In this document: one piece after another, positions 4,818-43,115 of the stretch | How positions within the stretch are numbered: the stretch's first letter is position 1 | Layout: the number at the start of each line of letters is the position of its first letter | The notes under the pieces: generated by a model | Told to the model about the DNA's origin: nothing | Database searches by the model: none | What the model saw: the letters and a program-made list of their open reading frames with translations, nothing else | Made by a program: the position numbers and the translations under genes | NCBI GenBank assembly: GCA_964513995.1 | Contig: CAZEOQ010000008.1 | Span: 8,759-72,758, forward strand | Reading direction: 5' to 3' | Length of the DNA stretch: 64,000 nt | Origin: an uncultured Desulfobacterales bacterium | Lineage (GTDB): Bacteria > Desulfobacterota > DSM-4660 > Desulfatiglandales > JALVZP01

Positions 4818-5651
4818 TTAATATTCAGGAGGAAGTTCATTCAGTTCTGCAAGAGAAAATACTGGTCCATCCTTGCACACAAATTTGTGTCCAATATTGC
4901 ATCTTCCACACATCCCAATTCCACATTTCATCCTCATCTCAAGAGAAAGAAATATGTCTTCAGGAGAAAAGCCTATCTTTTCAAGAACAGGTCTTGTAAA
5001 TCTTATCATAACAGGTGGACCACAAACAAGTGCTATAGTATTTTCTGCACTTTTTATCTTCTCCTCCACTATATTTGGAACAAGCCCAACATTGTATTTC
5101 CAATCTGGATCATCTGTTGCATCTACGGTTATATGCATATCTATGTCAGATCTTTTTTCCCATTCAAAGATCTCTTTTTTATAAAGAAGAAGTCCTGGTC
5201 TTCTTGCACCATATACGACCGTTATCTTCCCAAACTTTCTTCTGTTTTCAAGCATATATACTATGCTTGATCTGAGTGTCGTAAATGCAAATCCTCCTCC
5301 AACTATAAGTATATTCCTTCCTTCCATCCTTTCCCATGGATATGGTCTTCCAAGAGGTCCTCTTATTCCAATGATATCTCCTTCTTTCATGTTATGCAGA
5401 TAAGATGTAACATATCCTGCTTTGTTTACTGTAAAAAGAAGATATCCCTTTTCTGTTGGAGATGATGCAATACCTATAGGAACTTCACCTCTTCCAGGAA
5501 CAGAAATCTCTGCAAACTGACCTGGAAGAAATTGAAACTTTTTTTCATGTTCTGGATAAAGGAAACTTAGCCTGTATGTCCTTATGTTTCTGTCATCTGT
5601 CTCAACAATTATCCTTTCAATCCTTGCAGGATAAGGAAGATATGGATTCAT
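4818..5651 (-). CDS. FAD/NAD(P)-binding 2Fe-2S oxidoreductase, sulfhydrogenase-gamma (HydG)/AsrB/FlxA-like
   Basis: It has RTYRLSF (an RxYS-type FAD motif), LIVGGGFAFTT (NAD(P) binding) and the C-terminal CGIGMCGRC...C 2Fe-2S motif. Confidence 0.8.
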   Translation of the reverse strand: MNPYLPYPARIERIIVETDDRNIRTYRLSFLYPEHEKKFQFLPGQFAEISVPGRGEVPIGIASSPTEKGYLLFTVNKAGYVTSYLHNMKEGDIIGIRGPLGRPYPWERMEGRNILIVGGGFAFTTLRSSIVYMLENRRKFGKITVVYGARRPGLLLYKKEIFEWEKRSDIDMHITVDATDDPDWKYNVGLVPNIVEEKIKSAENTIALVCGPPVMIRFTRPVLEKIGFSPEDIFLSLEMRMKCGIGMCGRCNIGHKFVCKDGPVFSLAELNELPPEY

Positions 5652-6684
5652 TCCTTTTCTCCTCTGCCAACATGTTTATTATTCTTCTTATATCCATATT
5701 TGTTGGACAATACATTATGCACCTTCCACATCCAGAACACTGTATCCCTTTCTTGTATCTTTCAGGATAATACTTCAGTTTGTGCATAAATCTCTGTCTT
5801 ACCCTTCTGAACTTCTCTCCACGCGGATTATATCCTGATGCATGAAGTGTAAATATCGGAAACATACATGAATCCCAATTCCTAATTCTATCTCCTCTTT
5901 TTCCATACACCTCATCCTGTATGTCAAAACACCAGCATGTTGGACAAAGAAATGTGCAGATCCCACAAGTTATACAGGGAAATGATACAGAATTCCAGAT
6001 ATCTGATTCAAAAACAGAAAGGACTGGTCTTTTAAGAAGATCCTCAATCTTAAGATCTACTTTTATCTTTTCTTCTGCCTCTTTTTTTAACTTTTCTGCC
6101 TTTTCTAAATGCTCCTTTTTTGCTTCATCTCCTCCAATCTTATCCAGAAAATCCCTTCCCTTATCTGTTATGTCCTTTATGAGAAACCCTTCTCCAAGAT
6201 CATACATAATTGCATCAAGTCCTTTTTCACTAAAAGGACCTCCTCCTACTTTCAGACAAAAACAGCTGCTTCTTGGACTATTACATGCAAGTCCAATAAA
6301 TGTCGTAAGACTGTATCTTTTTGTCCACCATGGATCTTTGTATTCAGGAGTGTCAAAATTCTGTTTTACTATCTGAAATGCATGTGCATCACATGGTCTT
6401 ATTCCAACAATTATCTGAGGAGAAAAATCCTTTTTTGCTTCTTTAAGTATGTATGCATCAGGATCATCCTTATCAAGACTGTATTCAAACATCCTTTCTG
6501 ATTGAGGAAAGAGTATGCTTTTTGGAGAAAGCTTTGTGTTGAAAAATGAAAAATCTGGTAAAATGTCATCTTTTAGCTCCTGAAATAAATGGAAGTAATC
6601 CTTTTTTACAGGAACAAATACCTTATAATTTTTAGAAATCTCTCTTAGCTTTTTTAAAAAATCATCCTTCAGAACAAACCTCAT
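5617..6684 (-). CDS. Iron-sulfur protein, sulfhydrogenase-beta (HydB)/AsrA/FlxB-like
   Basis: It has the motifs CITCGICTFLCPTCWC and CSGCGRCIMYCPTN. It overlaps the FlxA-like gene by 35 nt. Confidence 0.75.
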   Translation of the reverse strand: MRFVLKDDFLKKLREISKNYKVFVPVKKDYFHLFQELKDDILPDFSFFNTKLSPKSILFPQSERMFEYSLDKDDPDAYILKEAKKDFSPQIIVGIRPCDAHAFQIVKQNFDTPEYKDPWWTKRYSLTTFIGLACNSPRSSCFCLKVGGGPFSEKGLDAIMYDLGEGFLIKDITDKGRDFLDKIGGDEAKKEHLEKAEKLKKEAEEKIKVDLKIEDLLKRPVLSVFESDIWNSVSFPCITCGICTFLCPTCWCFDIQDEVYGKRGDRIRNWDSCMFPIFTLHASGYNPRGEKFRRVRQRFMHKLKYYPERYKKGIQCSGCGRCIMYCPTNMDIRRIINMLAEEKRNESISSLSCKD

Positions 6685-6696
6685 CTCTTTCTCCTC

Positions 6697-7641
6697 TTAG
6701 ATAAAATCATCATAGTCATCTCTTCTGTATGTAGAAAGAAGCTGCCCTTTTTCCAAAGACATACCTGACTGCCATGAAAAAAGCTCAAATGCATCCTTGT
6801 TAAGTTTCTTTACAAATATCCTTATAGGAATTCCCATAGGACATACCCTTTCACATGAACCACAGTCTGTGCATCTTCCTGCAAGATGCATTGCACGGAT
6901 AATGTGAAATGTAAGCGTATCTACGAAGTCTATACTCTTTCCAAAATACGGGATCTTTTCGTCAATGAAACATGTAGGACAGTAGCAGTGAGGACATACA
7001 TTTCTGCATGCATAACAGCGAATGCATCCTTCTATAGCCTGCTCAATGTAACTTCTTTTTTCCTTCGGTGACTTTTTTTCTATCTCTTCTACATCCTTAT
7101 AAACAGGTCTTTCAGATCTTGGAGTTACAGGATCTGCTACAAGTTCGTCATATATAACAGGATTTGGATGTGTGCAGCTTAGGCAGTTTTCCTGAAGGAA
7201 ATCTTCTTTTTTAAACCTTTCTTCAAATCCATCACAGATTACCTTAAAACTTTCTCCTTCTTCTTCTATCCTTAGGACTTCTTTTCCTTCAATCCTTCTC
7301 AGGACCTTCCTATAGTCAATTATTCCTTTACATGGAATTCCTACAATATAGATCTTTTCCCTCTTTATCTGATTCTCAATTATATGATTCACGATACTTC
7401 TTGATACACATCCTGTTGCAACAATTCCTATCCTTTCCTTTCTTCCTGTAAGATACGTGCAGAGATTCAGTCCACAGTTGCTGTTCCATATGAGTTTTTC
7501 TACTTCTTGAGGATCTGATATAAGTGTTGGTCTTGGAAAAAATGGATTTGTTCCTTTTTCATATCCAATAAAGATGTCTATCCTTTTTTCTTCAAAAAGC
7601 CTTTTTGCTATCTGCCTTATCTTTTCTGTATATCCTTCCAT
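6697..7641 (-). CDS. Iron-sulfur protein, FlxC-like (FrhB/FdhB-like N-terminal domain plus two 4Fe-4S motifs)
   Basis: It has the motifs CIRCYACRNVCPHCYC and CTDCGSCERVCPMG. The N-terminus is similar to the N-terminus of the 1027-aa HdrA-like protein. Its start abuts the mvhD stop. Confidence 0.65.
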   Translation of the reverse strand: MEGYTEKIRQIAKRLFEEKRIDIFIGYEKGTNPFFPRPTLISDPQEVEKLIWNSNCGLNLCTYLTGRKERIGIVATGCVSRSIVNHIIENQIKREKIYIVGIPCKGIIDYRKVLRRIEGKEVLRIEEEGESFKVICDGFEERFKKEDFLQENCLSCTHPNPVIYDELVADPVTPRSERPVYKDVEEIEKKSPKEKRSYIEQAIEGCIRCYACRNVCPHCYCPTCFIDEKIPYFGKSIDFVDTLTFHIIRAMHLAGRCTDCGSCERVCPMGIPIRIFVKKLNKDAFELFSWQSGMSLEKGQLLSTYRRDDYDDFI

Positions 7642-8069
7642 CAGGGAACCTCTGCTCTTCTTTTTACAAAGAAATCAGAAGGACCAAGTTTTTTTACTTT
7701 TTCTGCAATAAGCTTTGCTGTTTCAGCAAACTTTGTTCCTTCTGCTGAGGATATCCATGAAAAGAAGATCCTTTCTGGTTCTATTCCGATAAATTCAAGG
7801 AGTCTTTTAAGAAGAACGAATCTCCTTCTTGCATACATATTCCCTTCTATATAATGACAGTCTCCTGGATGACATCCTGATACCCATACTGCATCTGCAC
7901 CATTTCTGAATGCCTGAATAATGAATCTCGTATCAACTCTGCTAGAACATGGAACCCTTATTATCCTGAAATAAGGAGGATACTGAAGACGGCTTACTCC
8001 TGCAAGATCAGCAGCACCATAACTGCACCAATTGCAAAGAAATGCAACAATCTTTGGTTTCCATTCCAT
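7641..8069 (-). CDS. mvhD: MvhD/FlxD-type hydrogenase iron-sulfur (2Fe-2S) subunit
   Basis: IVAFLCNWCSYGAADLAG...RVPCSSRV...VSGCHPGDCHY is the canonical MvhD cysteine pattern. Confidence 0.85.
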   Translation of the reverse strand: MEWKPKIVAFLCNWCSYGAADLAGVSRLQYPPYFRIIRVPCSSRVDTRFIIQAFRNGADAVWVSGCHPGDCHYIEGNMYARRRFVLLKRLLEFIGIEPERIFFSWISSAEGTKFAETAKLIAEKVKKLGPSDFFVKRRAEVP

Positions 8070-8073
8070 CTCT

Positions 8074-11000
8074 TTATTCTCCTATTCTCCTTATTTCATC
8101 AATCATGCTCATTATCTGTTCTGTCCTGAATCCATTAAGATTTATTGCTCCTGACCTGCAAGATGCAACACAAAGACCACATCCTTTACATAGAACCGGA
8201 TTTATTGCTGCCTTTCCTTTAAATGGACCTTCTTCAATAAAGTATGGTGCACCATATGGGCATATCTTTATGCATGTTCCACATGATGAACACAGCATTG
8301 GATTCACTTCTGCTACATATCCTTCTGTAAGTATCTTGTCCTTTGTAAGAAGGACTGTTGCTCTTGATACTGCTGCCTTTGCCTGAGATATTGCTTCATC
8401 AATCGGTTTTGGATAATGACACATCCCACAAAGGTATATTCCATCTGTTGCAAATTCTGCTGGTGCAAGCTTTGGATGTGATTCTACAAAAAATCCGTCT
8501 TCATTCAGTGGGACTTTGAAGAATTTTGCAATCTGCTCACTTTCTTCATTAGGAACTATTGCTGATGCAAGAATGATAAGATCTGGCTGGATAATAATAT
8601 CTCTTTCAAGGATATGATCTTTTACCTTTACCTTGAGGACTCCATTCTCATTTGAAACCTCTGGCTTCTTTTCAAGATCATATCTTATAAAAAGAACACC
8701 CTTTTTTCTTGCCTCAAGATAAAGATTCTCTCTTTCTCCATATGTCCTTATGTCCCTGTAAAGTATGTATATGTCCATTTCAGGATTCAGCTCTTTCAGA
8801 TAAAGAGCACTCTTTATAGAATGAGTACAGCATACCTTTGAACAATAAGGTCTTTCCTTATCTCTTGAACCAACACACTGTATAAATACAACACTTTTTA
8901 GTCTTTTAAGAGAAGGATCTCCTTTTATGAACCTTTCATCAAGCTCAAGACCTGTAATAACCCTTTGATCTTTTCCATAAAGATATTCATCAGGCTTATA
9001 TTCCTTTGCTCCAACAGCAATTATTACTGCTCCATGTTCAATAATGTATTCTTTTCCATCTGATAGGATCTTTGTCTTAAAGTTTCCAACAAATCCCTCA
9101 ACTGAAATTATCTTTGCCTTAAGAAATACTTCTATGTTCTTATCATTTCTTACATCTTCTATAAGAGCTTTAAGTCTTTCCTGAACATCCTCTCCTTTCC
9201 ATGTCTTATAAATCCTCCTTGCCTGTCCTCCAAGCTCCTTTTCCTTTTCAACAAGAAATACCTTGTATCCCTGCATTGAAAGTGATCTTGCTGCTGTCAT
9301 CCCAGCTATTCCACCACCTATAACAAGGACATTCTTGTTTATACTTATCTTTTCTTCTTTAAGTGGTTCCATAAGAGAAACCTTTGCTACAGCCATCCTT
9401 ATAAGATCCTTTGCAATATCTGTTGCATCTTCTGGAAAATCCTTATGAACCCATGAATCCTGATTCCTTATATTTGCCATCTCAAAAAGATACTTATTAA
9501 GTCCTGCACTGATAAGTGTTTCCCGAAAAAGAGGCTCATGTGTCCTTGGAGAACATGCAGCAACAACAATCCTATTCAGACCTTTTTCTCTTATAACCTG
9601 AGCTATCTTTTCCTGTGTCTCCTGAGAGCATGTATATAGGTTGTCTTCTACATGTTCAACAAAAGGAAGGGTTTTTGCATATTCCTTAAGTTCAGAAATG
9701 TTTATGACTCCACCAATATTTATTCCACAATGACAGATAAATACACCAACTTTTGGTCTCTCTCCTGATACATCCCTTTCAGCTGGAAGAGTCTTTTCTT
9801 TTACAGCAGTTCCCCTTACATCACTTAAAAGGATTCCCACTTCACAAGCAGAAGCAGATGCATCTATTACAGAAGATGGAATGTCTTTTGGACCAGAAAT
9901 CGTTCCGCATACAAAAATGCCTTTTTTTGATGTAGATACAGGAGAGAATGAATCCGTATAAACAAACCTTCCTTTTGTAAGCCTTATTCCAAACCTCTTC
10001 AGTATCTCTTCCATCTCTTCCCTTATCTCAAATCCAACAGAAAGGACAACAATGTCAAAAAGCTCACTTTTTGGCATCCCTTTATCATCAAGATATCTTA
10101 TAAGAAGATCACCATTTTCTTCCTCTATCGTATGTATCCTTGCTCTTATAAATCTTACACCATCTTTTCTTGCCCTTTCATAGTATCTTTCAAATTCCTT
10201 TCCATATGTCCTCATATCCATATAGAATATTGCACAGTCAACTTCTGGATTATGCTCCTTTGCAACAACAGCCTCCTTTATTGCATACATACAGCATACA
10301 GAAGAACAGTATTGATTTGTCTTTATTTCACGAGATCCAACACACTGAATCCACGCAATCTTTTTTGGCTCTTTTCCATTAATAAGAAGTCTTCCTTGTG
10401 TTGGACCTGATGCAGAAAGTATCCTTTCAAATTCCATTGAAGTCATTATATTCTTATGATTCCTGTAGTTATAATTTGGAATAGATGATGGATCAAATAC
10501 CTTAAGACCTGAAGCAAATATTATTGCCCCTACCTCTATCTGTTCTATCCTTTCTGTATCATCAAGCTTTATGGCACCTGCCTGACATACCCTTTCACAT
10601 CCCTTGCAATCAAGTATATCATTTATCTTAAGACATGCATCTGGATCTCTTGCTGCCTTAAGTGGAACAGCCTGTGGATACTTTATGTATATTGCTTTTC
10701 TGTATGAAAGCCCTTCATTGTATTCATCAGGAACAACAACAGGACATACATTTATCCTTCTTATTGCTCCTTCTTTGCATGCCTCAATACAGCTCCAGCA
10801 ACCTGTGCATTCAAATGTATTGTATATAGGCTTTTCGCAGTTGCACTTTATTGCCTGCTCTAAGGAACATTCAATCCCTATGAATCTTAATCTTCTTAGA
10901 TCAACCTCCTCTTCAAACTTCCTCAAAGCCCTTATATCACATCCTCTCATAACAGCAGCAAGCTTTATATCTGGATCTTTTTTCAGTATCCTCTTTACTA

Positions 11001-11157
11001 TACCTGCAAGACTGTATCTTGGCTCTGTCTCAAGATATTCTATCTCTTCTTCTTTCCTGAAAAGATAAGGACCAACATGCCCCCATCTTTTTCTGAGTCC
11101 AAGGACAAGATATCCTTCTCTTATAGCAGATATTGCCTCTTTCTTTATCCTTTCCAT
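8074..11157 (-). CDS. Giant HdrA-like flavoprotein: N-terminal FrhB-like domain, an HdrA body lacking its own N-terminal Rossmann strand, then a complete second HdrA module
   Basis: The first half has AIYIKYPQAVP, IQCVGSREIKTNQYCSSVCC and GIFVCGTISGPKDIPSSV, but no GxGxxG upstream. The second half has NVLVIGGGIAGMTAA, IQCVGSRDKERPYCSKVCC and the terminal ferredoxin motifs CSSCGTCIKICPYG and CKGCGLCVASCRSG. Confidence 0.85.
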   Translation of the reverse strand: MERIKKEAISAIREGYLVLGLRKRWGHVGPYLFRKEEEIEYLETEPRYSLAGIVKRILKKDPDIKLAAVMRGCDIRALRKFEEEVDLRRLRFIGIECSLEQAIKCNCEKPIYNTFECTGCWSCIEACKEGAIRRINVCPVVVPDEYNEGLSYRKAIYIKYPQAVPLKAARDPDACLKINDILDCKGCERVCQAGAIKLDDTERIEQIEVGAIIFASGLKVFDPSSIPNYNYRNHKNIMTSMEFERILSASGPTQGRLLINGKEPKKIAWIQCVGSREIKTNQYCSSVCCMYAIKEAVVAKEHNPEVDCAIFYMDMRTYGKEFERYYERARKDGVRFIRARIHTIEEENGDLLIRYLDDKGMPKSELFDIVVLSVGFEIREEMEEILKRFGIRLTKGRFVYTDSFSPVSTSKKGIFVCGTISGPKDIPSSVIDASASACEVGILLSDVRGTAVKEKTLPAERDVSGERPKVGVFICHCGINIGGVINISELKEYAKTLPFVEHVEDNLYTCSQETQEKIAQVIREKGLNRIVVAACSPRTHEPLFRETLISAGLNKYLFEMANIRNQDSWVHKDFPEDATDIAKDLIRMAVAKVSLMEPLKEEKISINKNVLVIGGGIAGMTAARSLSMQGYKVFLVEKEKELGGQARRIYKTWKGEDVQERLKALIEDVRNDKNIEVFLKAKIISVEGFVGNFKTKILSDGKEYIIEHGAVIIAVGAKEYKPDEYLYGKDQRVITGLELDERFIKGDPSLKRLKSVVFIQCVGSRDKERPYCSKVCCTHSIKSALYLKELNPEMDIYILYRDIRTYGERENLYLEARKKGVLFIRYDLEKKPEVSNENGVLKVKVKDHILERDIIIQPDLIILASAIVPNEESEQIAKFFKVPLNEDGFFVESHPKLAPAEFATDGIYLCGMCHYPKPIDEAISQAKAAVSRATVLLTKDKILTEGYVAEVNPMLCSSCGTCIKICPYGAPYFIEEGPFKGKAAINPVLCKGCGLCVASCRSGAINLNGFRTEQIMSMIDEIRRIGE

Positions 11158-11158
11158 C

Positions 11159-13189
11159 TTACTTCCTCTTTACATTTACTGCACATGCCTTAAAGTTTGG
11201 TATCTTTGAAAAAGGATCAAGCTTTCTTGATACAAGCATGTTTGCAGGAGATTCCTTAAAGTGCATTGGAATAAAGATTACTCCAGGTTCTATTTCTTCA
11301 GAAACATAAGCCTTTATCTCAATCTTTCCTGTCTCTGAGATTACCTCTACAGTATCACCTTCTTTTATACCCAGCCTTTCTGCATCCCTTCTGCTTATCT
11401 CAACATATCCTTCATTTACTTCATTTTCCAGTCTTTCTATCTTCCTTGTTATGCTTCCTGTGTGAAAATGAAAAGGACATCTTCCTGTTATAAGGATAAA
11501 TGGATACTTGTCAGAAGGTTTTATCTGAGTATGTTCAACTGAAAAGAATCTTGCCTTTCCTATAGGAAATCCGTCTTTGTAAAGAAATGGTGTTCCTGGA
11601 TGATCTTCTGAAGGACATGGCCACTGAATTGTTTCTCCACTTTCAAGCCTTTCATATGTTATTCCTGCATAGGATGGTGTAAGCCTTCTTATTTCATCCA
11701 TTATCTGCTTTGGAGAAGAATAGTTAAATCCTTTTGCTCCAATCCTTTCTGCAATCTCACATACTATCTTCCAATCTGGCATTGAATTTCCAACAGGATC
11801 TATAGCCTTTCTTACTCTCTGGACTCTTCTGTCCGTATTCGTAAACGTTCCATCTTTTTCTGCAAAGCTTGATGCAGGAAGGACAAAATGTGCAAGCTCT
11901 GCTGTCTCAGTAAGGAATATGTCAACTACTACGAGAAGTTCTAAAGAACTCAATGCTTTTTTTACATGACTTATGTCAGGATCAGAAATTGCTGGATTCT
12001 CTCCAAATATTATCATTGCCTTTAGAGAACCTTTTTCTGCCTCATTCATCATCTCAACCAAAGTAAGTCCTTTTTTTTCTGGAACAGGAACTCCCCATTC
12101 CTTTTCAAAGACCCTTCTTGCATCCTCATCATCTACTCTTCTATATCCTGTAAGCACATCTGGAAGAGCACCCATATCACACGCACCCTGAACATTGTTC
12201 TGTCCGCGAAGAGGATTTACTCCTGTTGCTGGCTTTCCTATGTTTCCTGTTGCAAGTGAAAGATTTGCTATTGCCTTTACATTATCTGTTCCGTTTATGT
12301 GCTGTGTTATTCCCATTGCATAAAAAAGCATTGATCTTGATCTTGCATAAAGGATGGCTGCTTTTTCTATAAGCTCCTTAGATGCTCCTGTAATGCTGCT
12401 TACATAATCTGGATCATACCTTTTTACGGTCTCTTCAATTTCCTGAAATCCCTGTGTCCTTTCACTTATAAAACTTCTGTCTATGAGTCCTTCTTTTATT
12501 ATCACATGAAGAAGACCATTAATAAGTGCAATATTTGTTCCTGGCTTTATCCTCAGATATATATCAGCATATCTGCTTATAGGAATACTTCTTGGATCAG
12601 CTACAATAAGCCTTGCTCCTTTCTGCTTTGCACTTATTATCCAGCTTGCAACAAGAGGGTGCTGACTTGTTGTATTGCTTCCTGTAATGAATATGCATTC
12701 AGCCTGATCTATCTCTGTTATAGAATTCGTCATTGCACCTGCACCAAATGCCTGTCTAAGTCCTTCTACTGTGCTTGAATGACAAAGTCTTGCACAGTGA
12801 TCTATGTTGTTCGTTCCTACAGCTGCTCTTGCAAATTTCATTATAAGATAGTTTTCTTCATTTGTGCATTTTGCACTGGAGATTATTCCAACAGAATCAG
12901 GTCCGTATTTTTCTATTATCTTTTTAAGCCTTTCTGATATCTCCTTTAAGGCAGTATTCCAGTCTGTCTCAAAGAACCTTCCATTCTTTTTTACGAGAGG
13001 ATTCTTCAGTCTTTCAGGATGCTGAACAAACTTATGTGCACTTCTTCCAAGGACACAAAGCTTTCCTCTGCTTACAGGATGTGTCTTGCACGGAACAACC
13101 CCTTTTATCTCACCATCTTCTACTTCAAGATAAAAATTGCATCCTGTTCCACAAAAAGGACATGTTGTAAGGACAAAATCAGAGTTCAT
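11159..13189 (-). CDS. fdhA: Formate dehydrogenase catalytic subunit (molybdopterin/tungstopterin oxidoreductase), Cys-type
   Basis: It has an N-terminal CPFCGTGCNF 4Fe-4S motif and the active-site block HCARLCHSS, with Cys where E. coli FdhH has Sec, followed by His. LRGQNNVQGACDMGALPD is typical of the FdhF/FdhA family. Confidence 0.85.
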   Translation of the reverse strand: MNSDFVLTTCPFCGTGCNFYLEVEDGEIKGVVPCKTHPVSRGKLCVLGRSAHKFVQHPERLKNPLVKKNGRFFETDWNTALKEISERLKKIIEKYGPDSVGIISSAKCTNEENYLIMKFARAAVGTNNIDHCARLCHSSTVEGLRQAFGAGAMTNSITEIDQAECIFITGSNTTSQHPLVASWIISAKQKGARLIVADPRSIPISRYADIYLRIKPGTNIALINGLLHVIIKEGLIDRSFISERTQGFQEIEETVKRYDPDYVSSITGASKELIEKAAILYARSRSMLFYAMGITQHINGTDNVKAIANLSLATGNIGKPATGVNPLRGQNNVQGACDMGALPDVLTGYRRVDDEDARRVFEKEWGVPVPEKKGLTLVEMMNEAEKGSLKAMIIFGENPAISDPDISHVKKALSSLELLVVVDIFLTETAELAHFVLPASSFAEKDGTFTNTDRRVQRVRKAIDPVGNSMPDWKIVCEIAERIGAKGFNYSSPKQIMDEIRRLTPSYAGITYERLESGETIQWPCPSEDHPGTPFLYKDGFPIGKARFFSVEHTQIKPSDKYPFILITGRCPFHFHTGSITRKIERLENEVNEGYVEISRRDAERLGIKEGDTVEVISETGKIEIKAYVSEEIEPGVIFIPMHFKESPANMLVSRKLDPFSKIPNFKACAVNVKRK

Positions 13190-14129
13190 ATCTCATTCTC
13201 CTGTTTTTATCCATCCTTTTTCTTACAAAATCTATTATCTTTCTCTTTGCCTCTTCGCTGAGACCTGGAACAAGCTTGAAGGCATCTTCTGGTGAGAAGA
13301 ACTGTGTTATATCCTGGAGGGTCTTGAGGGGTATTCCTGCTGGACATGTCTCCTCACATTCACCACAAAGTATACATCTATCCCATACCTGATATGCCCT
13401 TATGAGGTGAAATTCAGGATATCTTGGAGGGACTTCTCCCTGTTTTATCCATTCTGAAATCCTAAGCTCATCTTCTTCTTCCTCTCTTACAGGACACTGA
13501 TCAATACATCCATAACACTTTATGCATCTTACAAAATGTGAATCCCAGAATCTCTTCCTCTCTTCTAAATCCATCCTTATGAGCTTTTGCAAAAGATTTG
13601 GTTCTTTTTCCTTTTTTGCTTCACGGATAGCTTTTTGAACCACATTTGTAAGAGCATTCCTTTCTTTGTTTTCCTCTGTGCACGCCTTTACACATTCACC
13701 ACAGTGGATGCAGGCTACATCATCTATGATGATCCTGTCTACCCAAAGTCTTCCATCTTTTTCTTCTGGCTCTTTTTCCAAAAAAATAGAACAGCATTCA
13801 CCACATCCAGTGCACTTTTCTGCATCTACATATCTTGGTCTTATCCTCAGCTTTACCCTGAAATTCCCCTCTTCCCCTTCTATTTCTTCTATCTTTGCAA
13901 GTGTTATTATCTTTATATTTGGATGCCTTCCAACCTCAACCAGGTTGGGAGAAAGTATTCACATAGAGCAGTCATTTGTAGGAAATGTCTTATCAAGCTG
14001 ACTCATTATTCCTCCAACAGCAGAAGTCTCTTCAACCAGATATACAAAATATCCTGAATTTGCAAGATCAAGTGCTGACTTTATCCCAGATATACCTCCA
14101 CCAATTACCATAACAGACCCTTTTTTCAT
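13179..14129 (-). CDS. Selenocysteine-containing HdrA N-terminal (FAD Rossmann) domain fused to a poly-ferredoxin domain; in-frame UGA at 13959-13961
   Basis: The ATG at 14127-14129 has GGAGG 7 nt upstream. The translation is [15 protein letters not shown]...[31 protein letters not shown]..., continuing in frame with no other stop into the 200-aa ORF listed at 13179-13781. The UGA is codon 57 and sits at the second Cys of the Hdr[12 protein letters not shown] motif. Ferredoxin motifs [23 protein letters not shown] and [12 protein letters not shown] follow. Confidence 0.75.
13930..13948 (-). promoter_or_regulatory. Candidate bacterial SECIS hairpin
   Basis: In the mRNA sense the sequence is CCAACCU-GGUUG-AGGUUGG: a perfect 7-bp stem with a 5-nt G/U-rich loop. 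It starts 11 nt after the in-frame UGA. Confidence 0.55.
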
Positions 14130-37701: not shown

Positions 37702-39588
37702 ATGGCAAACTTTGAAACAGTAGAAGTCAAGACAGACCTTCTTATCATTGGTGGTGGAATGGCAGCATGTGGTGCTGCTACAGAGGCATCATATTGGGCA
37801 AAAAAGCATGGTCTTAAGGTAGTAATGGTAGATAAGGCAGTTCCAGAAAGAAGTGGTGCAGTAGCACAGGGACTTTCTGCTATAAATCTTTATCTTGGAA
37901 TGAAACATGGAGAAAATACACCTGAAGACTATGTAAGATATGTCCGCAATGACCTTATGGGAATTTCAAGAGAGGATCTCGTATACAACATTGCAAGACA
38001 TGTAGACTCAACAGTCCATCTCTTTGAGAAATGGGGACTCAGGATCTGGACAGATGAAAGTGGAAAGTATGTGCGTGAAGGAAGATGGCAGATAATGATA
38101 AACGGAGAGTCATACAAGTGGATAGTTGCAGAGGCAGCAAGAAATGCAATGAAGGATGCAGGAGGAGAGATATTTGAAAGAGTATTCATTGCAGAGCCAC
38201 TTATAGAAGGAAACAGATGTGTTGGTGCAGTAGGATTCAGCGTAAGAGAAAATAAGTTCTATGTATTTAAGGCAAGGGCAACAATAATTGCTGCAGGTGG
38301 TGCAGTCCATGTATTCCGTCCAAGATCAACAGGTGAAGGATTTGGTCGTTCCTGGTATCCACCATTCAATACAGGATCCAGTGCATACTTTACAATAAAG
38401 TCTGGATGTGAAATGACATGTCAGGAAGTAAGATTTGTTCCTGTAAGATTCAAGGATGCATATGGACCAGTTGGTGCATGGTTCCTGCTTTTTAAGTCAA
38501 GGGCAATAAGTGCAGCTGGTGGAGATTACATGGAGACAAGAAAGGATGTCCTTGAAAAATGGAAGCCATATGGACTTGCAAAACCAATCCCAGCAAACTT
38601 AAGAAACTATCTTGGACAGCTTGACCTTGATGCAGGTCTTGGACCACTTTACATGATGACACATGAGGCAATTGCGAAGCTTGCAGAGCAGTATAAGGAT
38701 GATCCAAAGGCATACAAGAGAAAGCTTAAGGAACTTGAAGCAGAAGCATGGGAAGACTTCCTTGACATGACAATCTCACAGGCACTCCTTTGGGCATCCC
38801 AGAACATAAAACCAGAAGAAAAGCCATCAGAGATTGCAGCAGCTGAACCATACTTCATAGGATCACACTCTGGTGCATCAGGTGCATGGGTAAGTGGACC
38901 AGAAGATCTTCCAACACCATACAAGTGGGGACCAGTAAACATGACAACAGTAGAAGGACTTTTTGCAGCAGGAGATGCATCTGGTGCATCACCACATAAG
39001 TTCTCATCAGGATCTCATACAGAAGGAAGGATTGCAGGAAAGTCTGCTATAAGATACCTCGTGGAGCAGAATCCACCAGAACCACAGATTGATCCAAAGA
39101 AGATAGAAGAACTCAAGAAGAAGGTCCTCTCACCACTTGATCGCTTTGAGAAGTATAAGAACTACACAACAGATCCAACAGTAAATCCAAACTACCTGCT
39201 CTGGCGTCAGTTCCTTGATAGACTCCAGAAGATCATGGATGAGTATGCAGGTGGAGTAAATGTTGGATTTAAGACAAACAAGCATCTTCTTGAAAGAGGA
39301 CTTGAGCTTCTTCAGTTCCTGAAAGAAGACAGTGAAAAGCTTGCAGCTCGTGATCTCCATGAGCTTATGAGGTGCTGGGAGTGCATCCACAGGATGTGGC
39401 AGGCAGAAGCTCATGTAAGAAGTGTCCTGTTTAGAGAGGAAACAAGATGGCCAGGATACTACTTCAGAGCAGACTTCCCAGAAATGGATGAAAAGAACTG
39501 GCACTGCTTCGTAAACTGCAGATGGAATCCAGAGACAGGTGAATGGGAGCTTATGAAGAAGGATGTATGGCATATGCCAGGAGTATAA
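37702..39588 (+). CDS. aprA: Adenylylsulfate (APS) reductase alpha subunit
   Basis: It has an FAD Rossmann fold (LLIIGGGMAACGAA), a fumarate-reductase-family fold and the conserved FREETRWPGYYFRADFPE block. Confidence 0.95.
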   Translation: MANFETVEVKTDLLIIGGGMAACGAATEASYWAKKHGLKVVMVDKAVPERSGAVAQGLSAINLYLGMKHGENTPEDYVRYVRNDLMGISREDLVYNIARHVDSTVHLFEKWGLRIWTDESGKYVREGRWQIMINGESYKWIVAEAARNAMKDAGGEIFERVFIAEPLIEGNRCVGAVGFSVRENKFYVFKARATIIAAGGAVHVFRPRSTGEGFGRSWYPPFNTGSSAYFTIKSGCEMTCQEVRFVPVRFKDAYGPVGAWFLLFKSRAISAAGGDYMETRKDVLEKWKPYGLAKPIPANLRNYLGQLDLDAGLGPLYMMTHEAIAKLAEQYKDDPKAYKRKLKELEAEAWEDFLDMTISQALLWASQNIKPEEKPSEIAAAEPYFIGSHSGASGAWVSGPEDLPTPYKWGPVNMTTVEGLFAAGDASGASPHKFSSGSHTEGRIAGKSAIRYLVEQNPPEPQIDPKKIEELKKKVLSPLDRFEKYKNYTTDPTVNPNYLLWRQFLDRLQKIMDEYAGGVNVGFKTNKHLLERGLELLQFLKEDSEKLAARDLHELMRCWECIHRMWQAEAHVRSVLFREETRWPGYYFRADFPEMDEKNWHCFVNCRWNPETGEWELMKKDVWHMPGV

Positions 39589-39607
39589 GAACAGGGCTTA
39601 AATAAAA

Positions 39608-39651
39608 TAACGCCCTGGGCTTAAAAAGCCCAGGGCGTTATACCGTTTTTT
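39608..39651 (+). terminator. Rho-independent terminator/attenuator between aprA and qmoA
   Basis: A 15-bp perfect GC-rich stem (TAACGCCCTGGGCTT / AAGCCCAGGGCGTTA) closes a 3-nt loop and is followed by TACCGTTTTTT. It starts 20 nt after the aprA stop. Confidence 0.8.
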
Positions 39652-39665
39652 GAAAGGAGGGGAAG

Positions 39666-40919
39666 ATGGCAGCTGAAAATAAATCTATTTTGGTTGTAGG
39701 TGGAGGAATGAGCGGTCTAACAGCAGCTATAGAAGCTGCAGAAGCAGGTTTTAATACATATATTGTTGAAAAGAATCCCTACATAGGAGGAAGAGTAACA
39801 CAGATATATCATTACTTTCCAAAGCTTTGTCCTCCATACTGTGGTCTTGAGATAAACTTCAGGAGAATAAAGACGAATCCAAACATAAAGGTCTTTACAA
39901 TGGCAGAAGTTGAAGAAATAAAGGGAGAAGAAGGGAATTTCCAGGTTACTGTAAAGATAAATCCAAGATATGTAAATGAAAGGTGCACTGCATGTGGAAT
40001 ATGTGAAAAGGAATGCACAGCTCAGATAGAAAATCCATTTAATTATGGAATGGACAAGGTAAAGGCAATATACCTTCCTCATCCACTTGCATATCCTATG
40101 CGCTATGTGATGGAAAGCTCTTATGCAAAGAGCGAAGAGGCAAAAAAACTGAAAGACATATGTCCTTATGGTGCAATTGATCTTGATATGAAAGAAGAAA
40201 GGATTGAACTGAATGTAGGAGCAATAATATTTGCTATTGGATGGAGTCCGTATGATGCAAAAAAACTTGATACATATGGATTTGGAAAGTATAAGGATGT
40301 GATCACGAATGTAATGATGGAAAGGCTTGTAAGCTGGACAGGACCAACAAAAGGAAAGATACTCAGACCTTCGGATGGAAAACCACCAAAAAGGGTAGCA
40401 TTTGTTCAGTGTGCAGGATCTCGTGATGAAAATCATCTTCCATACTGCTCTGGTGTATGCTGTCTTGCTTCTATGAAACATGCAAGATACATAAGAGAAC
40501 AGCTTCCAGAATGTGAAATATACATATTCTTCATAGACATAAGAGCTACTGACAGGATGGAAGACTTTTATAACAGTGTAAAAGATGATGAGAAGATAAA
40601 GTTCTTTAAAGGAAAGGTTGCAAAGATTACAGAAAAAGATGGTAAGCTTCTTCTGAAAGTTGAAGACACTACAGCTGAAGCACTGAAAGAGATAGAAGTA
40701 GATCTTGTTGTCCTTGCTACAGGAATGCAGCCAAATTCTTCCTTAGAATCCCTTCCAATTGATCTTCCAATTGACGAATACGGATTTATAGCATCACACA
40801 ATCCAGCTCCTGGAATATATGCTGCAGGCTGCACAAGAAAGCCTACTGGAGTAGCAGAAGCTGTTCAGGATGGAACAGCAGCTGCTCTTAGAGCAATCCA
40901 ATCTCTTGTGAGGAGGTAA
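39666..40919 (+). CDS. qmoA: Quinone-interacting membrane-bound oxidoreductase subunit QmoA (HdrA-like flavoprotein)
   Basis: It has ILVVGGGMSGLTAA and VQCAGSRDENHLPYCSGVCC. Its size is about 417 aa, and it is followed by qmoB and qmoC downstream of aprBA. Confidence 0.9.
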   Translation: MAAENKSILVVGGGMSGLTAAIEAAEAGFNTYIVEKNPYIGGRVTQIYHYFPKLCPPYCGLEINFRRIKTNPNIKVFTMAEVEEIKGEEGNFQVTVKINPRYVNERCTACGICEKECTAQIENPFNYGMDKVKAIYLPHPLAYPMRYVMESSYAKSEEAKKLKDICPYGAIDLDMKEERIELNVGAIIFAIGWSPYDAKKLDTYGFGKYKDVITNVMMERLVSWTGPTKGKILRPSDGKPPKRVAFVQCAGSRDENHLPYCSGVCCLASMKHARYIREQLPECEIYIFFIDIRATDRMEDFYNSVKDDEKIKFFKGKVAKITEKDGKLLLKVEDTTAEALKEIEVDLVVLATGMQPNSSLESLPIDLPIDEYGFIASHNPAPGIYAAGCTRKPTGVAEAVQDGTAAALRAIQSLVRR

Positions 40920-40924
40920 TTCAG

Positions 40925-43102
40925 ATGGAGAAGAAGATAGGTGTTTATATTTGTGAGGGGTGTGGGATAGGTGAATCTTTGGATATGGAAGCACTTGAAA
41001 AAGTTGCAACTGAAGAAGGAAAAGCAGCAGTTTGCAGACGCCATAAGGCATTCTGTTCTGAAGAAGGACTGGAGATAATAAAGAAGGACATATCAGATGG
41101 AGTAAATGCTTTGATAATTGCTGCATGTTCTCCAAGGGTCATGACAGATGTATTCAGTTTTGAAAACTGTATTCTTGAAAGGGTAAACCTGAGAGAACAG
41201 GTCGCCTGGATACAGGAGCCAAAGAATGAAGACACACAGATGATGGCAGAAGATTATCTGAGGATGGCTCTCGTAAAAGTAAAAAACATGGAACTTCCTG
41301 TTCCTTACATACCTGAGGAAGAGGTTTCAAAAGACATACTTGTTGTAGGAGGAGGGGTTGCTGGACTTAGTGCAGCAATTGAAGGAGCAAAGGCAGGATA
41401 TAACATAATCCTTGTAGAAAAGGAAAAAGAACTTGGAGGATTTCAGAGGAAGGTAAAAAAGATTGCAACAATGCCATATAAGGACATAAAGGATAATGAT
41501 ATAGACAGACTTATTGAGGAAGTAACCAAAAATGAAAGGATAAAGGTATATACAGGAGCAAGGATTGAAAGCACAGAAGGTGGACCTGGTATATTTAAGG
41601 TAAAGATAAATCAGGATGGAAAGACCGTAGAACATAAGATTGGAGCAATTGTTGTTGCAGCAGGATGGGTTCCATATGATCCAGAAAAGCTTGATCCAAA
41701 ATATGGATACGGAAAATCTCCTAAGGTCATAACAAGTGTCCAGTTTGAAGAAAGACAGAAAGAAGGATTAAAGAATGTTGCATTTATTCAGTGTGTTGGA
41801 CAGAGAGATCCAAATCACCTTCCATACTGTTCTACATTCTGCTGTATAGCATCTCTGAAACAGGCAATAGAGATAAAGCAGAATGATCCTGAAGCAAATG
41901 TATACATAGTATTTCGTGAAATGAGAACTCCTGGACATGAAGAAGATCTTTACAGAAGAGCACAAGAGCTCGGTGTAATCTTTATAAGATCACAGCAGAC
42001 AGAGGTAAAGGTTGAGGGAGATAAGGTATCTGTTGTTGCAAAGGATGAAATACTTGGAGAAGATGTCATCCTTGAGGATCTTGACCTCGTTGTCCTTGCA
42101 ACAGGAGCTGTTCCTGTAAGTGCATTTGGTGAAGAGATAATTCAGGAAAAGATAGAATCTGAAGGAGAAGAGATAGAAGTTCCACCAGATCTTATAAGAA
42201 GGAGCAACATACTGAATCTTCAGTATAGACAAGGACCAGAGATGCCTGCCTTAAAATACGACTTCCCTGATTCTCACTTTATCTGCTTCCCATATGAGAC
42301 GAGAAGGACAGGGATATATGCTGCTGGATGCATCAGGAGACCTATGGGAATTGATTCTGCAAAGGATGATGGAGCAGGAGCAATGATGAAGGCTATTCAG
42401 TGTGTTGAAAGGACTGCAAAAGGTCAGGTCGTTCATCCAAGGACCTGGGAAAGAGGCTATCTTGAAATAGATCTTTCAAGATGCACACAGTGTAAGAGAT
42501 GCACTGTTGAATGTCCATTTGGTGCAATTAATGAAGATGAAAAAGCAAATCCTATTCCTATTATTACAAGATGCAGAAGATGTGCGACATGCATGGGAGC
42601 ATGTCCACAGAGGATTATATCATTCAAGGACTATTCTGTAAGCATAATTGGAGAGATGTTAAGGGCTATAGAAGTTCCAGAAGATGAGGAAAAACTGAGA
42701 ATCCTTGTATTTGCCTGTGAAAATGATGCATATCCTGCACTTGATATGGCAGGTCAGTTCAGGCTTAAAGTTAAGCCATGGATAAGGGTCATACCACTTA
42801 GATGTCTTGGTTCACTTAATCTCGTATGGATTGCAGATGCACTTTCAAGAGGGATAGATGGTGTTCTTCTTCTCGGATGCAAGCATGGAGATGATTATCA
42901 GTGTCATTTTGTAAAAGGAAGTGAGCTTGCAAATATAAGGTTGAGCAAGATATCTGAAACACTTGAAAGACTTGCTCTTGAGCCAGAAAGAGTAAAGTTT
43001 GAAATAGTTGCTATAGATGATTATCCAAGGATTCCTGAAATGATTGAAAGCTTTGTAAAGACAATAGAAGAAATAGGACCAAATCCATTCAAAGGATGGT
43101 AA
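40925..43102 (+). CDS. qmoB: QmoB (HdrA-like flavoprotein with ferredoxin and C-terminal MvhD-like domains)
   Basis: It has ILVVGGGVAGLSAA, IQCVGQRDPNHLPYCSTFCC, CTQCKRCTVECPFGA and CRRCATCMGACP, plus the MvhD-like tail FACENDAYPA...LLLGCKHGDDYQCH. Confidence 0.9.
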   Translation: MEKKIGVYICEGCGIGESLDMEALEKVATEEGKAAVCRRHKAFCSEEGLEIIKKDISDGVNALIIAACSPRVMTDVFSFENCILERVNLREQVAWIQEPKNEDTQMMAEDYLRMALVKVKNMELPVPYIPEEEVSKDILVVGGGVAGLSAAIEGAKAGYNIILVEKEKELGGFQRKVKKIATMPYKDIKDNDIDRLIEEVTKNERIKVYTGARIESTEGGPGIFKVKINQDGKTVEHKIGAIVVAAGWVPYDPEKLDPKYGYGKSPKVITSVQFEERQKEGLKNVAFIQCVGQRDPNHLPYCSTFCCIASLKQAIEIKQNDPEANVYIVFREMRTPGHEEDLYRRAQELGVIFIRSQQTEVKVEGDKVSVVAKDEILGEDVILEDLDLVVLATGAVPVSAFGEEIIQEKIESEGEEIEVPPDLIRRSNILNLQYRQGPEMPALKYDFPDSHFICFPYETRRTGIYAAGCIRRPMGIDSAKDDGAGAMMKAIQCVERTAKGQVVHPRTWERGYLEIDLSRCTQCKRCTVECPFGAINEDEKANPIPIITRCRRCATCMGACPQRIISFKDYSVSIIGEMLRAIEVPEDEEKLRILVFACENDAYPALDMAGQFRLKVKPWIRVIPLRCLGSLNLVWIADALSRGIDGVLLLGCKHGDDYQCHFVKGSELANIRLSKISETLERLALEPERVKFEIVAIDDYPRIPEMIESFVKTIEEIGPNPFKGW

Positions 43103-43115
43103 TGGAGGTAGTGCT

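Follow-up and report, generated by a model that had tools for sequence, protein, structure and literature searches.

Among the main families of flavin-based electron-bifurcating enzymes is one built around HdrA, and little is understood, beyond the methanogens, of the way in which the HdrA flavin is connected to electron donors and acceptors. The subject here is an operon on a 64,000-nucleotide stretch of DNA (hereafter the window) from an uncultured Desulfobacterales bacterium (contig CAZEOQ010000008.1, positions 8,759 to 72,758), in which a formate dehydrogenase gene, fdhA, stands between the genes for a 316-residue selenoprotein and a 1027-residue protein. Each of these two proteins carries a part of the first of two HdrA modules (module 1), and it is probable, judging from their sequences, that the two chains form a single site for flavin adenine dinucleotide (FAD), assembled in trans. 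A catalytic FAD pocket would then be built from two polypeptides, and a small protein routinely annotated as ‘FdhB’, ‘ferredoxin’ or ‘NAD(P)H-binding domain’ would be part of an HdrA flavin site. Genes split within a domain in this manner are, to our knowledge, rare.

In HdrA of Methanococcus maripaludis, selenocysteine (Sec) 197 lies between the N-terminal domain's cluster and the flavin (PMC13518236), and Cys197 reaches the N-terminal cluster domain on the opposite subunit of the HdrA dimer (PMC9012536). Fused or tandem ‘heterodimeric’ HdrA proteins have been described as HdrA3/4, HdrA5+6 and HdrA12+13 of anaerobic methanotrophic archaea (ANME) and in the MetFV-HdrABC-MvhD of Moorella thermoacetica (Chadwick et al., 2022; PMC9012536). 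Their modules have suffered complementary losses, the N-terminal cluster domain being found in one and Cys197 in the other, and FdhA-like genes are frequent in their clusters. The present locus resembles them in both respects, with Cys/Sec197 on the module 1 side, in the small protein, and the N-terminal domain in module 2 only. Every module of the tandem proteins keeps its own FAD-binding residues, as the paper states explicitly, whereas module 1 here lacks a Rossmann motif in cis. The locus also differs in that the Cys197-bearing module comes first, its Rossmann motif, loop and beta-meander are on a separate polypeptide, and halves of FdhB are found on both chains.

The methanogen FdhAB-MvhD-HdrABC(-Fmd) complexes (7BKB, 9T1S) and Elp-Hdr (8RVU) share with this locus the FdhA subtype, FdhB-type domains, MvhD and the HdrA flavin. 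In methanogens FdhB is an intact FAD/F420-binding subunit that feeds HdrA via MvhD; here the middle of FdhB is absent, its N- and C-terminal domains are grafted on the HdrA pieces at the inserted-ferredoxin junction, and the operon has no HdrBC gene. HdrL of Desulfobacterium autotrophicum and Syntrophobacter fumaroxidans and HdrA9-11 of ANME-1 carry an NfnB/GltD-like insert at the same tandem-HdrA junction. That insert is in frame and leaves the polypeptide whole, whereas in the window separate genes stand at the junction and interrupt it; HdrL-type relatives align with the 1027-residue protein at 62–71% identity over 83%. A NADH dehydrogenase-heterodisulfide reductase of sulfate reducers, FlxABCD-HdrABC or ‘Hdr-Flox’, was reportedly described by Ramos and colleagues in 2015. 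As in that system, an MvhD-like protein, two iron-sulfur proteins and one FAD/NAD(P)H-binding protein are encoded beside hdrA; unlike it, the present operon lacks hdrBC, contains an inserted formate dehydrogenase and has an HdrA that is tandem as well as split.

Parts of this gene arrangement have been reported before. In a passing, one-sentence remark on hydrogenase-linked operons, Zhang et al. (2006; PMC1794560) wrote of “hdrA_N-unknown-hdrA_C”, some deltaproteobacterial hdrA genes being interrupted by another gene, as here; the remark does not include the junction, the consequence for the FAD site, the partner fusions or the fdhA case. Loci of the type ‘fdhB-fdhA-hdrA/L-mvhD’ are known in D. 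autotrophicum (PMC2702500), ‘Hdr/Flox’ with ‘two hdrA genes’ has been reported in S. fumaroxidans (PMC5947623), and HdrA/MvhD of Desulfurivibrio adjoins a fusion described as ‘FdhAB with NAD(P)H/FAD-binding domain’ (PMC12142623). These accounts do not recognise a split flavin site. Phrase searches of the literature (‘split HdrA’, ‘truncated HdrA’ and similar) returned only the 2006 remark, and an inter-chain FAD domain, reciprocal HdrA/FdhB chimerism and a common plug-in junction are not described in the literature searched.

The three genes of principal concern, with domains assigned by Pfam and NCBIfam like those of the rest of the operon, are as follows.

13179-14129, minus strand: gene for the 316-residue selenoprotein, an HdrA N-fragment with an FdhB C-terminal ferredoxin domain (translation, Pfam, NCBIfam, PDB profile)
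11159-13189, minus strand: fdhA, alpha subunit of a cytoplasmic formate dehydrogenase with molybdenum or tungsten bis-pyranopterin guanine dinucleotide (Mo/W-bisPGD), between the genes for the small and the 1027-residue protein
8074-11157, minus strand: gene for the 1027-residue protein, an FdhB N-domain, a Rossmann-less HdrA module 1 and an HdrA module 2

The open reading frame (ORF) of the small protein runs from 14129 to 13179 on the minus strand, is preceded by an AGGAGG ribosome-binding site and has one in-frame TGA at 13961-13959; in its translation three additional Cys motifs come after the HdrA-like N-terminal sequence. The first-pass annotation was right as to the ORF and the Sec; its length of 317 residues included the stop. 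Its claim that the protein holds only the N-terminal stretch of an HdrA is borne out by the NCBIfam HdrA2 model, which covers just residues 5-125 (model positions 141-262, E 1.5e-49), and a family profile of 45 members covers residues 142-307 of solved HdrA chains (E 7e-57). All matches were far beyond chance. A parallel drawn with QmoA of the same window (about 39666-40919) is also sound, with 43% identity to the fragment. The Cys/Sec197 feature of HdrA is present as DCSM-U at residues 53-57. With 168.8 bits for the small and 823.6 bits for the 1027-residue protein against an NCBIfam HdrA/HdrA2 cutoff of 1100, neither is an equivalog of methanogen HdrA. The features of the small protein are listed below; loci in other genomes are cited by number (L001 onwards), proteins likewise (P0041, P0192).

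13827-14129, minus strand: HdrA N-part, residues 1-101, corresponding to HdrA residues ~142-245; beta1-GxGxxG-alphaA-beta2, GG motif, loop, helix and three-strand beta-meander
14085-14102, minus strand: GxGxxG dinucleotide-binding motif, GGGISG, residues 10-15, invariant in the family alignments
13959-13961, minus strand: in-frame TGA read as Sec, residue 57, at the position of HdrA Cys/Sec197; a TGA is also at this site in L008, L009, L091 and L092
13926-13952, minus strand: hairpin with a GGUUG loop, 9-36 nucleotides past the UGA, a candidate bacterial selenocysteine insertion sequence (SECIS)
13680-13826, minus strand: short copy of the inserted ferredoxin, residues 102-150, with CTGCGECC; the family profile reaches HdrA residue 307
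13233-13682, minus strand: FdhB C-terminal 2x[4Fe-4S]-like region, residues 150-299 (hhalign and PDB profile)

Alignment of the 1027-residue protein with solved HdrA matches residues 109-375 to HdrA 245-490, residues 460-699 to HdrA 4-244 and residues 835-1020 to HdrA 470-650. Its domains, which include those of the thioredoxin reductase (TrxR) type, are as follows.

10843-11157, minus strand: FdhB/FlxC N-terminal-like region, PF04422-like, residues 1-105 (hhalign 98.9%; PDB profile E 2e-6)
10558-10836, minus strand: module 1, inserted ferredoxin domain, residues 108-200, from EKPIYNTFECTGCWSC; HdrA and junction alignments, eight invariant Cys
9793-10557, minus strand: module 1, rest of the TrxR/FAD domain, residues 201-455, lacking the beta-alpha-beta
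9358-9762, minus strand: module 2, HdrA N-terminal [4Fe-4S] domain, residues 466-600, with C474, C476, C509 and C534
8338-9357, minus strand: module 2, TrxR/FAD domain, residues 601-940, with its own GGGIAG at 9304-9321
8077-8337, minus strand: module 2, C-terminal ferredoxin domain, residues 941-1027

Module 1 thus resumes at HdrA ~245. The proposal that it starts at the point where the HdrA piece of the small protein stops, which would be a clean cut, does not stand: a full domain of the inserted-ferredoxin type is found in both proteins, as is the (K/R)P(R/I)Y...CxGCxxC segment, so that they overlap by a whole domain. The sole GxGxxG of the 1027-residue protein found in a motif scan is at 613-618, in module 2, in agreement with the first-pass statement that module 1 has none; residues 1-108 match only FdhB N-domains. 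A cryptic Rossmann fold in residues 1-108 was considered and is ruled out by the motif scan, by hhalign (probability 1% for a 49-sequence profile against the Rossmann part) and by the PDB profile search. Module 1 therefore has a GxGxxG beta-alpha-beta only when both chains are combined. What remains of it in the large protein includes the ATG-type strand, E243 (= E356), CVGSR..CSSVCC, K293 (= K409) and GIFVCG..GPKDIP. The pair E356 and K409 has been proposed as a signature of bifurcating HdrA (PMC12054007); on the alignment with solved HdrA, module 1 has E243 and K293, both invariant, and module 2 has D739 and K787. Both modules contain the cluster site CxGSR...CSxxCC and the C-terminal FAD motif G..G..PKDIP, which are invariant in 60 sequences. 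The second half of the protein had been described as a complete HdrA with GGGIAG. The GGGIAG is there, but the Cys197 motif DCSMC is replaced by KTWKGEDVQ, and there is no inserted ferredoxin domain, the beta-meander running directly into the next strand of the sheet.

Past the first ferredoxin Cys motif of module 1, the split forms alone have ~11–14 additional residues (ACKEGAIRRINVC) that are lacking in the intact forms. In the FdhB_N-like domain C73, C97, C105 and C107 are invariant in 12 aligned sequences; these four Cys may constitute an extra iron-sulfur site at the fusion point.

The formate dehydrogenase itself scores above the cutoff of its model (TIGR01591, 894 bits against 666) and matches the Hdr-associated FdhA 9t1s_L with an E value of 8e-228. 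Its Sec position is Cys (CARLCHS, compared to CARLXHS in 9t1s_L), and the catalytic Cys-His pair is present. The domains that flank it on the two neighbouring proteins are of FdhB origin. Residues 1-108 of the 1027-residue protein match the N-terminus of the 314-residue FlxC-like protein encoded downstream (hhalign 98.9%, E 1e-17), and their profile, searched against all PDB sequences, found three chains only, 7bkb_E, 9t1s_M and 8rvu_E (E 2e-6 to 4e-5), all beta subunits of F420-type formate dehydrogenases matched at FdhB residues ~80-130. Residues 150-299 of the small protein, initially taken for an unrelated poly-ferredoxin, proved to be the C-terminal ferredoxin domain of F420-type FdhB: hhalign matches them to the C-terminal part of the 314-residue protein (99.8%, E 1e-29), and their profile matches residues 274-381 of the FdhB chains 9t1s_M, 7bkb_E and 8rvu_E (E 4e-28). 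With FdhB_C on the small protein and FdhB_N on the 1027-residue protein, the genes that flank fdhA are thus reciprocal HdrA/FdhB chimeras. Pfam model PF04432, for the middle FAD/F420-binding domain of FdhB, has no match on either protein, and the halves are on separate chains; the pair is, on this evidence, built of FdhB parts and yet not an FdhB. Formally, the arrangement would correspond to a swap of the 5' parts of fdhB and hdrA in an fdhB-fdhA-hdrA operon, an order reported in D. autotrophicum (PMC2702500). Since the ferredoxin domain is duplicated, the path suggested is partial duplication followed by complementary loss, rather than clean fission. The 314-residue protein is itself a shortened relative of F420-type FdhB/FrhB, of which both grafted halves are paralogues; its residues 10-111 correspond to FdhB 29-136 and residues 198-290 to FdhB 285-375, the FAD/F420 middle being missing.

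A search and motif scan for homologues of the 1027-residue protein gave several length classes. One of ~1034 residues has the same N-terminus as the window protein and one GxGxxG; one of ~1077 residues has an N-terminal 2Fe-2S domain and one GxGxxG; one of ~904–938 residues starts in mid-HdrA (e.g., ‘...GNF.V...PRYVD’); and one of ~1290–1400 residues is of the HdrL type. An unsplit relative, the existence of which the first-pass annotation had proposed to look for, was found in two forms. P0192, of 1021 residues, starts with MNDHPIGSVMVVGGGIAG...DCSMC, has a second GxGxxG at 602 and is an intact tandem HdrA in the Cys form. At L008 a 59-residue ORF is followed by TGA and then by 933 residues in frame, which together make an intact 1010-residue Sec form. 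Both are 55–59% identical to the 1027-residue protein and colinear over the junction; in the junction alignment the small protein is collinear with residues 1 to ~118 of the intact proteins, and the 1027-residue protein from ‘KPRYVD’ on.

The split is not peculiar to the window. The same layout of small protein, fdhA, a protein of ~1030–1054 residues and MvhD is found at L002, L004/L005 and L091; the contig of L003 ends past the start of the large gene, and that of L011 within fdhA. In the delta proteobacterium NaphS2 (L092, 1019-5134) the two chimeric genes directly abut with no fdhA between them, so that the split pair does not depend for its existence on an fdhA lying in between. At L001 it is a single canonical HdrA that is split at the same place on either side of FdhA: a 460-residue protein consists of the HdrA N-terminal domain, Rossmann motif, DCAAC and FdhB_C, and a 560-residue protein of FdhB_N and HdrA 251-650, so that the sole Rossmann motif available to this HdrA sits on the other chain. 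A second kind of split was found at L009 and its relatives, in which a free 132-residue Sec fragment (Rossmann motif, DCAM-U, meander and one CxxCxxCxxxCP) is followed by NuoE-like and NuoF-like genes and then by a 1077-residue protein with a NuoG-type 2Fe-2S domain in place of the first Rossmann. The HdrA N-fragment is fused to a NuoE-like protein in seven loci. The NuoE/F-type split is seen at L009:5095-11234, L025, L071, L078, L079 and ~10 shorter contigs.

An artefact confined to this genome, be it a frameshift, a misassembly or a pseudogene in decay, was considered, since the window comes from an uncultured genome and its in-frame TGA might be read as a nonsense mutation; it can be given practically no weight, and conservation already refutes it. 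The same architecture, with intact frames, is present in L001-L005, L011, L091 and L092 from unrelated samples and lineages, full-length homologues fall into >120 clusters, and the TGA is exactly at the known Sec197 site, where it alternates with Cys at about 1:1 in every class. In a search of 50%-cluster representatives, the small protein of the Fdh type had 9 clusters at E <= 1e-30, which marks it as a compact family rather than a huge one.

In the classified loci together with L091 and L092, each of the 11 split fragments with enough flanking sequence to be assessed had a Rossmann-less HdrA within 7 kb downstream, and each of 11 Rossmann-less HdrA genes had a split fragment within 7 kb upstream; orphan pieces accompanied 0 of 81 intact genes. 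This strict pairing bears on the idea that the small protein serves a different partner encoded elsewhere, another HdrA or a Qmo-type protein, its position beside a Rossmann-less HdrA reflecting co-regulation only. The window does encode QmoA and QmoB, and related genomes hold many HdrA paralogues. All of those seen, QmoA and QmoB included, carry their own Rossmann motifs, however, while the Rossmann-less modules were always within 7 kb of a free fragment, and the N- and C-terminal halves of FdhB are a second, independent reason for pairing; we regard a distant partner as very improbable.

The sequences of both pieces are strongly conserved. Among 45 homologues of the small protein at ~50% identity, G10, G12, G15, G39, G40, D46-T51, D53, C54 and C57 are invariant, as are the motifs GxGxxG, GG and DKTFPTxDCxxC; so are Cys 106, 109, 112, 140, 143, 146 and 150. 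In module 1, across 60 split and unsplit sequences, the ferredoxin Cys, V208/G209/G216, E243 and K293 are invariant, and so are C271-G-S-R275, C283/C287/C288 and G412/G417/P422-K-D-I-P426. The N-parts of split forms resemble one another, and those of intact forms, as closely as the intact ones do among themselves (mean identity 0.60–0.71 compared to 0.59), with the same positions conserved at >= 90%. Both pieces thus remain under selection for FAD binding, with no sign of decay.

Structure predictions were made with AlphaFold2 (AF2). The 1027-residue protein alone (60 sequences) gave a pLDDT (predicted local distance difference test) score of 77.8 and a predicted template modelling (pTM) score of 0.76, with module 2 and the TrxR remainder of module 1 confident; in Foldseek this model had HdrA chains as its top matches, with a template modelling (TM) score of ~0.74 on the target. 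The ferredoxin domain of module 1 (residues 103-194) has a pLDDT below 50 though its eight Cys are invariant, which has no direct bearing on assembly. In the model of P0041, a Cys homologue of the small protein from L002 (pLDDT 71, pTM 0.51), the N-part folds as a beta-alpha-beta followed by the DKTFPT..C loop, which is poorly predicted, by a helix and by a meander of three strands. Foldseek aligned 165–180 columns of it with HdrA and 122 with ElpB/FdhB, and with TrxR-type enzymes, which have >= 300 residues, only ~90–107; in this model the small protein is therefore a fragment of an FAD domain and not an independent flavoprotein. The self-sufficient TrxR-like fold that would have told against a composite site was not borne out for this homologue.

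One alternative is that module 1 is a flavin-free scaffold, a relic whose N-fragment only delivers Sec/Cys197 to module 2, or that the N-fragment is an independent NAD(P)H/FAD domain of an ‘FdhB’. Module 2 lacks a Cys197 of its own and so requires one from elsewhere, both pieces have kept a ferredoxin domain of their own, and in one study (PMC12142623) a related fused protein was taken to be an FdhAB bearing an NAD(P)H/FAD-binding domain. We nevertheless think this alternative unlikely. Invariant FAD-binding motifs, no less conserved than in intact genes, are found on both pieces; the 100-residue beta-alpha-beta and meander amount to no more than the initial third of an FAD domain of the TrxR type; module 1 has retained E356 and K409, the first of which is Asp in module 2; and at L001 the split HdrA is the pair's only HdrA.

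From the fold of flavoproteins with two dinucleotide-binding domains and from the published HdrA structures, we infer how a composite site could be assembled in trans. The contribution of the 316-residue selenoprotein would be the Sec197 loop, the beta-meander and the beta-alpha-beta that holds the ADP moiety of FAD; that of the 1027-residue protein would be the other strands of this domain, the [4Fe-4S] TrxR subdomain and the second, pseudo-dimeric HdrA module. Strands beta1 and beta2 of the small protein would pair with strands of the sheet in the 1027-residue protein to form the FAD pocket of module 1, which would then be occupied by flavin. Module 2 would give the N-terminal cluster domain that needs the Sec197 of its partner, and Sec57 of the small protein would reach it as Cys197 does across the HdrA dimer. 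The reciprocal chimerism leads us to expect the two polypeptides to be an obligate heterodimer, clamped around FdhA by FdhB halves that would pack together and hold it; such chimeras would predict subunit contacts in a widespread formate-linked complex. The claim of the first-pass annotation that an FAD site is shared by two polypeptides encoded on either side of fdhA is thus supported by domain complementarity, unsplit relatives and strict pairing, with physical assembly as the inferred part.

Several observations weigh against this proposal. The cut is not clean, and with an inserted-ferredoxin domain on each piece some autonomous role is possible. The remainder of module 1 folds confidently (pLDDT 76–93) without the missing strands, which likewise has no direct bearing on assembly. 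The folding energy of the candidate SECIS does not differ significantly from that of shuffled sequences (z = -0.78), and no Sec machinery was found in the window, a search for tRNA-Sec included. The operon has no gene for HdrBC or another high-potential acceptor, which makes the overall reaction uncertain. In S. fumaroxidans, a possibly equivalent cluster has two ‘hdrA’ products, only one of which was detected by proteomics (PMC5947623).

Electrons would pass between the pterin site of FdhA and the flavin of module 1 by way of the small protein's iron-sulfur chain, and NAD(P)H would be connected via FlxA/B/C-like proteins and MvhD. In methanogens the inserted ferredoxin domain of HdrA is the low-potential exit, at which polyferredoxins of Fmd, a CO2-reducing enzyme, dock (PMC12350162). 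FdhA is grafted at the position of this exit, which suggests that low-potential electrons might be delivered directly to CO2 reduction or, in the other direction, taken up from formate. The operon most likely encodes a soluble formate-dehydrogenase/HdrA/Flx-type complex of flavin-based electron transfer. Metabolic models that assume an NAD(P)H-dependent FdhAB in these organisms would then need revision; carriers of this formate-linked complex are found among sulfate reducers, syntrophs and Wood-Ljungdahl organisms, and its layout recurs in many anaerobic bacteria.

The HdrA N-parts were classified in 80 metagenomic loci picked by N-part similarity and 10 previously fetched loci. Intact forms accounted for 67 N-parts and in-frame insertions at the junction for 14 (mostly ~500 residues, HdrL/NfnB-like; cf. 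PMC9012536); 16 were split by NuoE/F-like genes, 6 were fused to the FdhB_C polyferredoxin and 7 were not resolved. Of the 6 FdhB_C fusions the 80 scanned loci contributed just one (L011), with 5 stemming from targeted context look-ups, and the label HdrL/NfnB-like for the inserts is drawn from the Pfam lists of the homologues of 1290–1400 residues. The insertions are exactly at the split junction of the window, with a gap of ~1.5 kb in most, 1.06 kb in L037 and 0.26 kb in L051. These observations allow the tentative suggestion, to which we give somewhat less than even weight, that the junction between beta-meander and inserted ferredoxin is a hot spot of HdrA at which whole redox modules are plugged in, whether fused in frame (the NfnB-like insert of HdrL), encoded by genes that interrupt the HdrA (NuoE/F-like) or brought in by a reciprocal FdhB swap around fdhA. 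The split forms would have an inter-chain bifurcating flavin, and the fdhA version would be the bacterial counterpart of Hdr-polyferredoxin-Fmd, its donor being NAD(P)H via Flx or, as the context of L004 suggests, H2 via Mvh. One HdrA junction would then account for the HdrL, NuoEF-linked and Fdh-linked architectures as plug-in variations. The argument for independent origins of the Fdh and Nuo splits is drawn only from their differing fusion partners: in a neighbour-joining tree of the ~105-residue N-parts, made for a count of split events, every class spanned the whole tree and the count was not resolved. A scan of representative genomes with the small protein returned one locus only, an unsplit tandem HdrA of a Ca. 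Desulfofervidaceae genome with 69% identity on the N-part, and no split relatives.

The loci with in-frame insertions are L012, L023, L029, L034, L037, L050, L051, L055, L056, L083, L086-L088 and L090. At L017:1656, L033:4706, L060:2168 and L075:8074 HdrA N-fragments are followed by sequence that matched no probe used; these may be further kinds of inserted module. In a metagenome-assembled genome of Ca. Desulfofervidaceae (L010:276-6841) there are two consecutive intact tandem HdrA genes, of 1013 and 1011 residues, the second of which has an N-part that shares 69.7% identity with the split fragment of the window.

The reading of the TGA as Sec rests on its position and its conservation. In the ~105 N-parts whose motif could be read, the ratio of Sec to Cys is about 1:1 within each architectural class. 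In public gene predictions the frame ends or begins anew at this codon, which makes the HdrA N-fragment invisible in annotations: the small gene of the window is on public record, in five independent records, only as a 200-residue protein from an internal TTG, and its relatives have been called as pieces of 59, 55, 174 or 186 residues. The usual names given to the protein are ‘FdhB’, ‘ferredoxin’ or ‘HdrA-like polyferredoxin’. The Sec genes lie at 13179-14129 in the window, L091:3906-4937, L092:1019-1972, L008:7773-10802 and L009:5095-5493.

The genes for the two chains and fdhA are the first of seven tightly packed genes on the minus strand (14129 to 4818), with overlaps or gaps of at most ~12 bases, which fits a single operon. 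The other four are as follows.

7641-8069, minus strand: MvhD/FlpD-type [2Fe-2S] connector, 142 residues, Cys form (PF02662, E 5e-54; VhuD-like)
6697-7641, minus strand: FlxC-like short iron-sulfur protein of the FdhB/FrhB family, 314 residues (matches to FdhB chains)
5617-6684, minus strand: FlxB-like, HydB/AsrA-like iron-sulfur protein, 355 residues (PF17179; HydB/AsrA models)
4818-5651, minus strand: FlxA-like, HydG/AsrB-like FAD-NAD(P)H-binding [2Fe-2S] protein, 277 residues (NCBIfam; orthologues PF00970, PF00175, PF10418)

The domain content of these proteins is compatible with FlxABCD (FlxD being MvhD-like, FlxA with FAD/NAD(P)H and [2Fe-2S] domains, FlxB and FlxC iron-sulfur proteins). 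The 277-, 355- and 314-residue proteins and MvhD are accordingly named here as putative Flx proteins. At L008:10907-11332, L009:11284-11715 and L092:5326-5526 the MvhD/FlpD gene is broken into ORFs of 57–66 residues, presumably by a Sec codon; the MvhD of the window, by contrast, is a continuous 142-residue Cys form.

At L004:4071-18836, L005 and L002:3604-15793 the Fdh/split-HdrA cluster adjoins MetF, MetV (DUF5981) and another HdrA-MvhD gene. At L004 and L005 it also adjoins [NiFe] hydrogenase genes, the small subunit in both and the large subunit with the HycI protease only in L004, the contig of L005 ending. These neighbours fit, and hint at, a role in the Wood-Ljungdahl pathway in the organisms of L002 and L004/L005.

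Elsewhere in the window (37702-44261) a 628-residue ORF is followed by a QmoA-like gene (39666-40919), a QmoB-like gene (40925-43102) and a 381-residue ORF (43116-44261). The G+C content is 0.41–0.43 at 36–40 kb compared to ~0.36 elsewhere in the window, and the stretch 37702-44261 points to a sulfate-reduction gene region.

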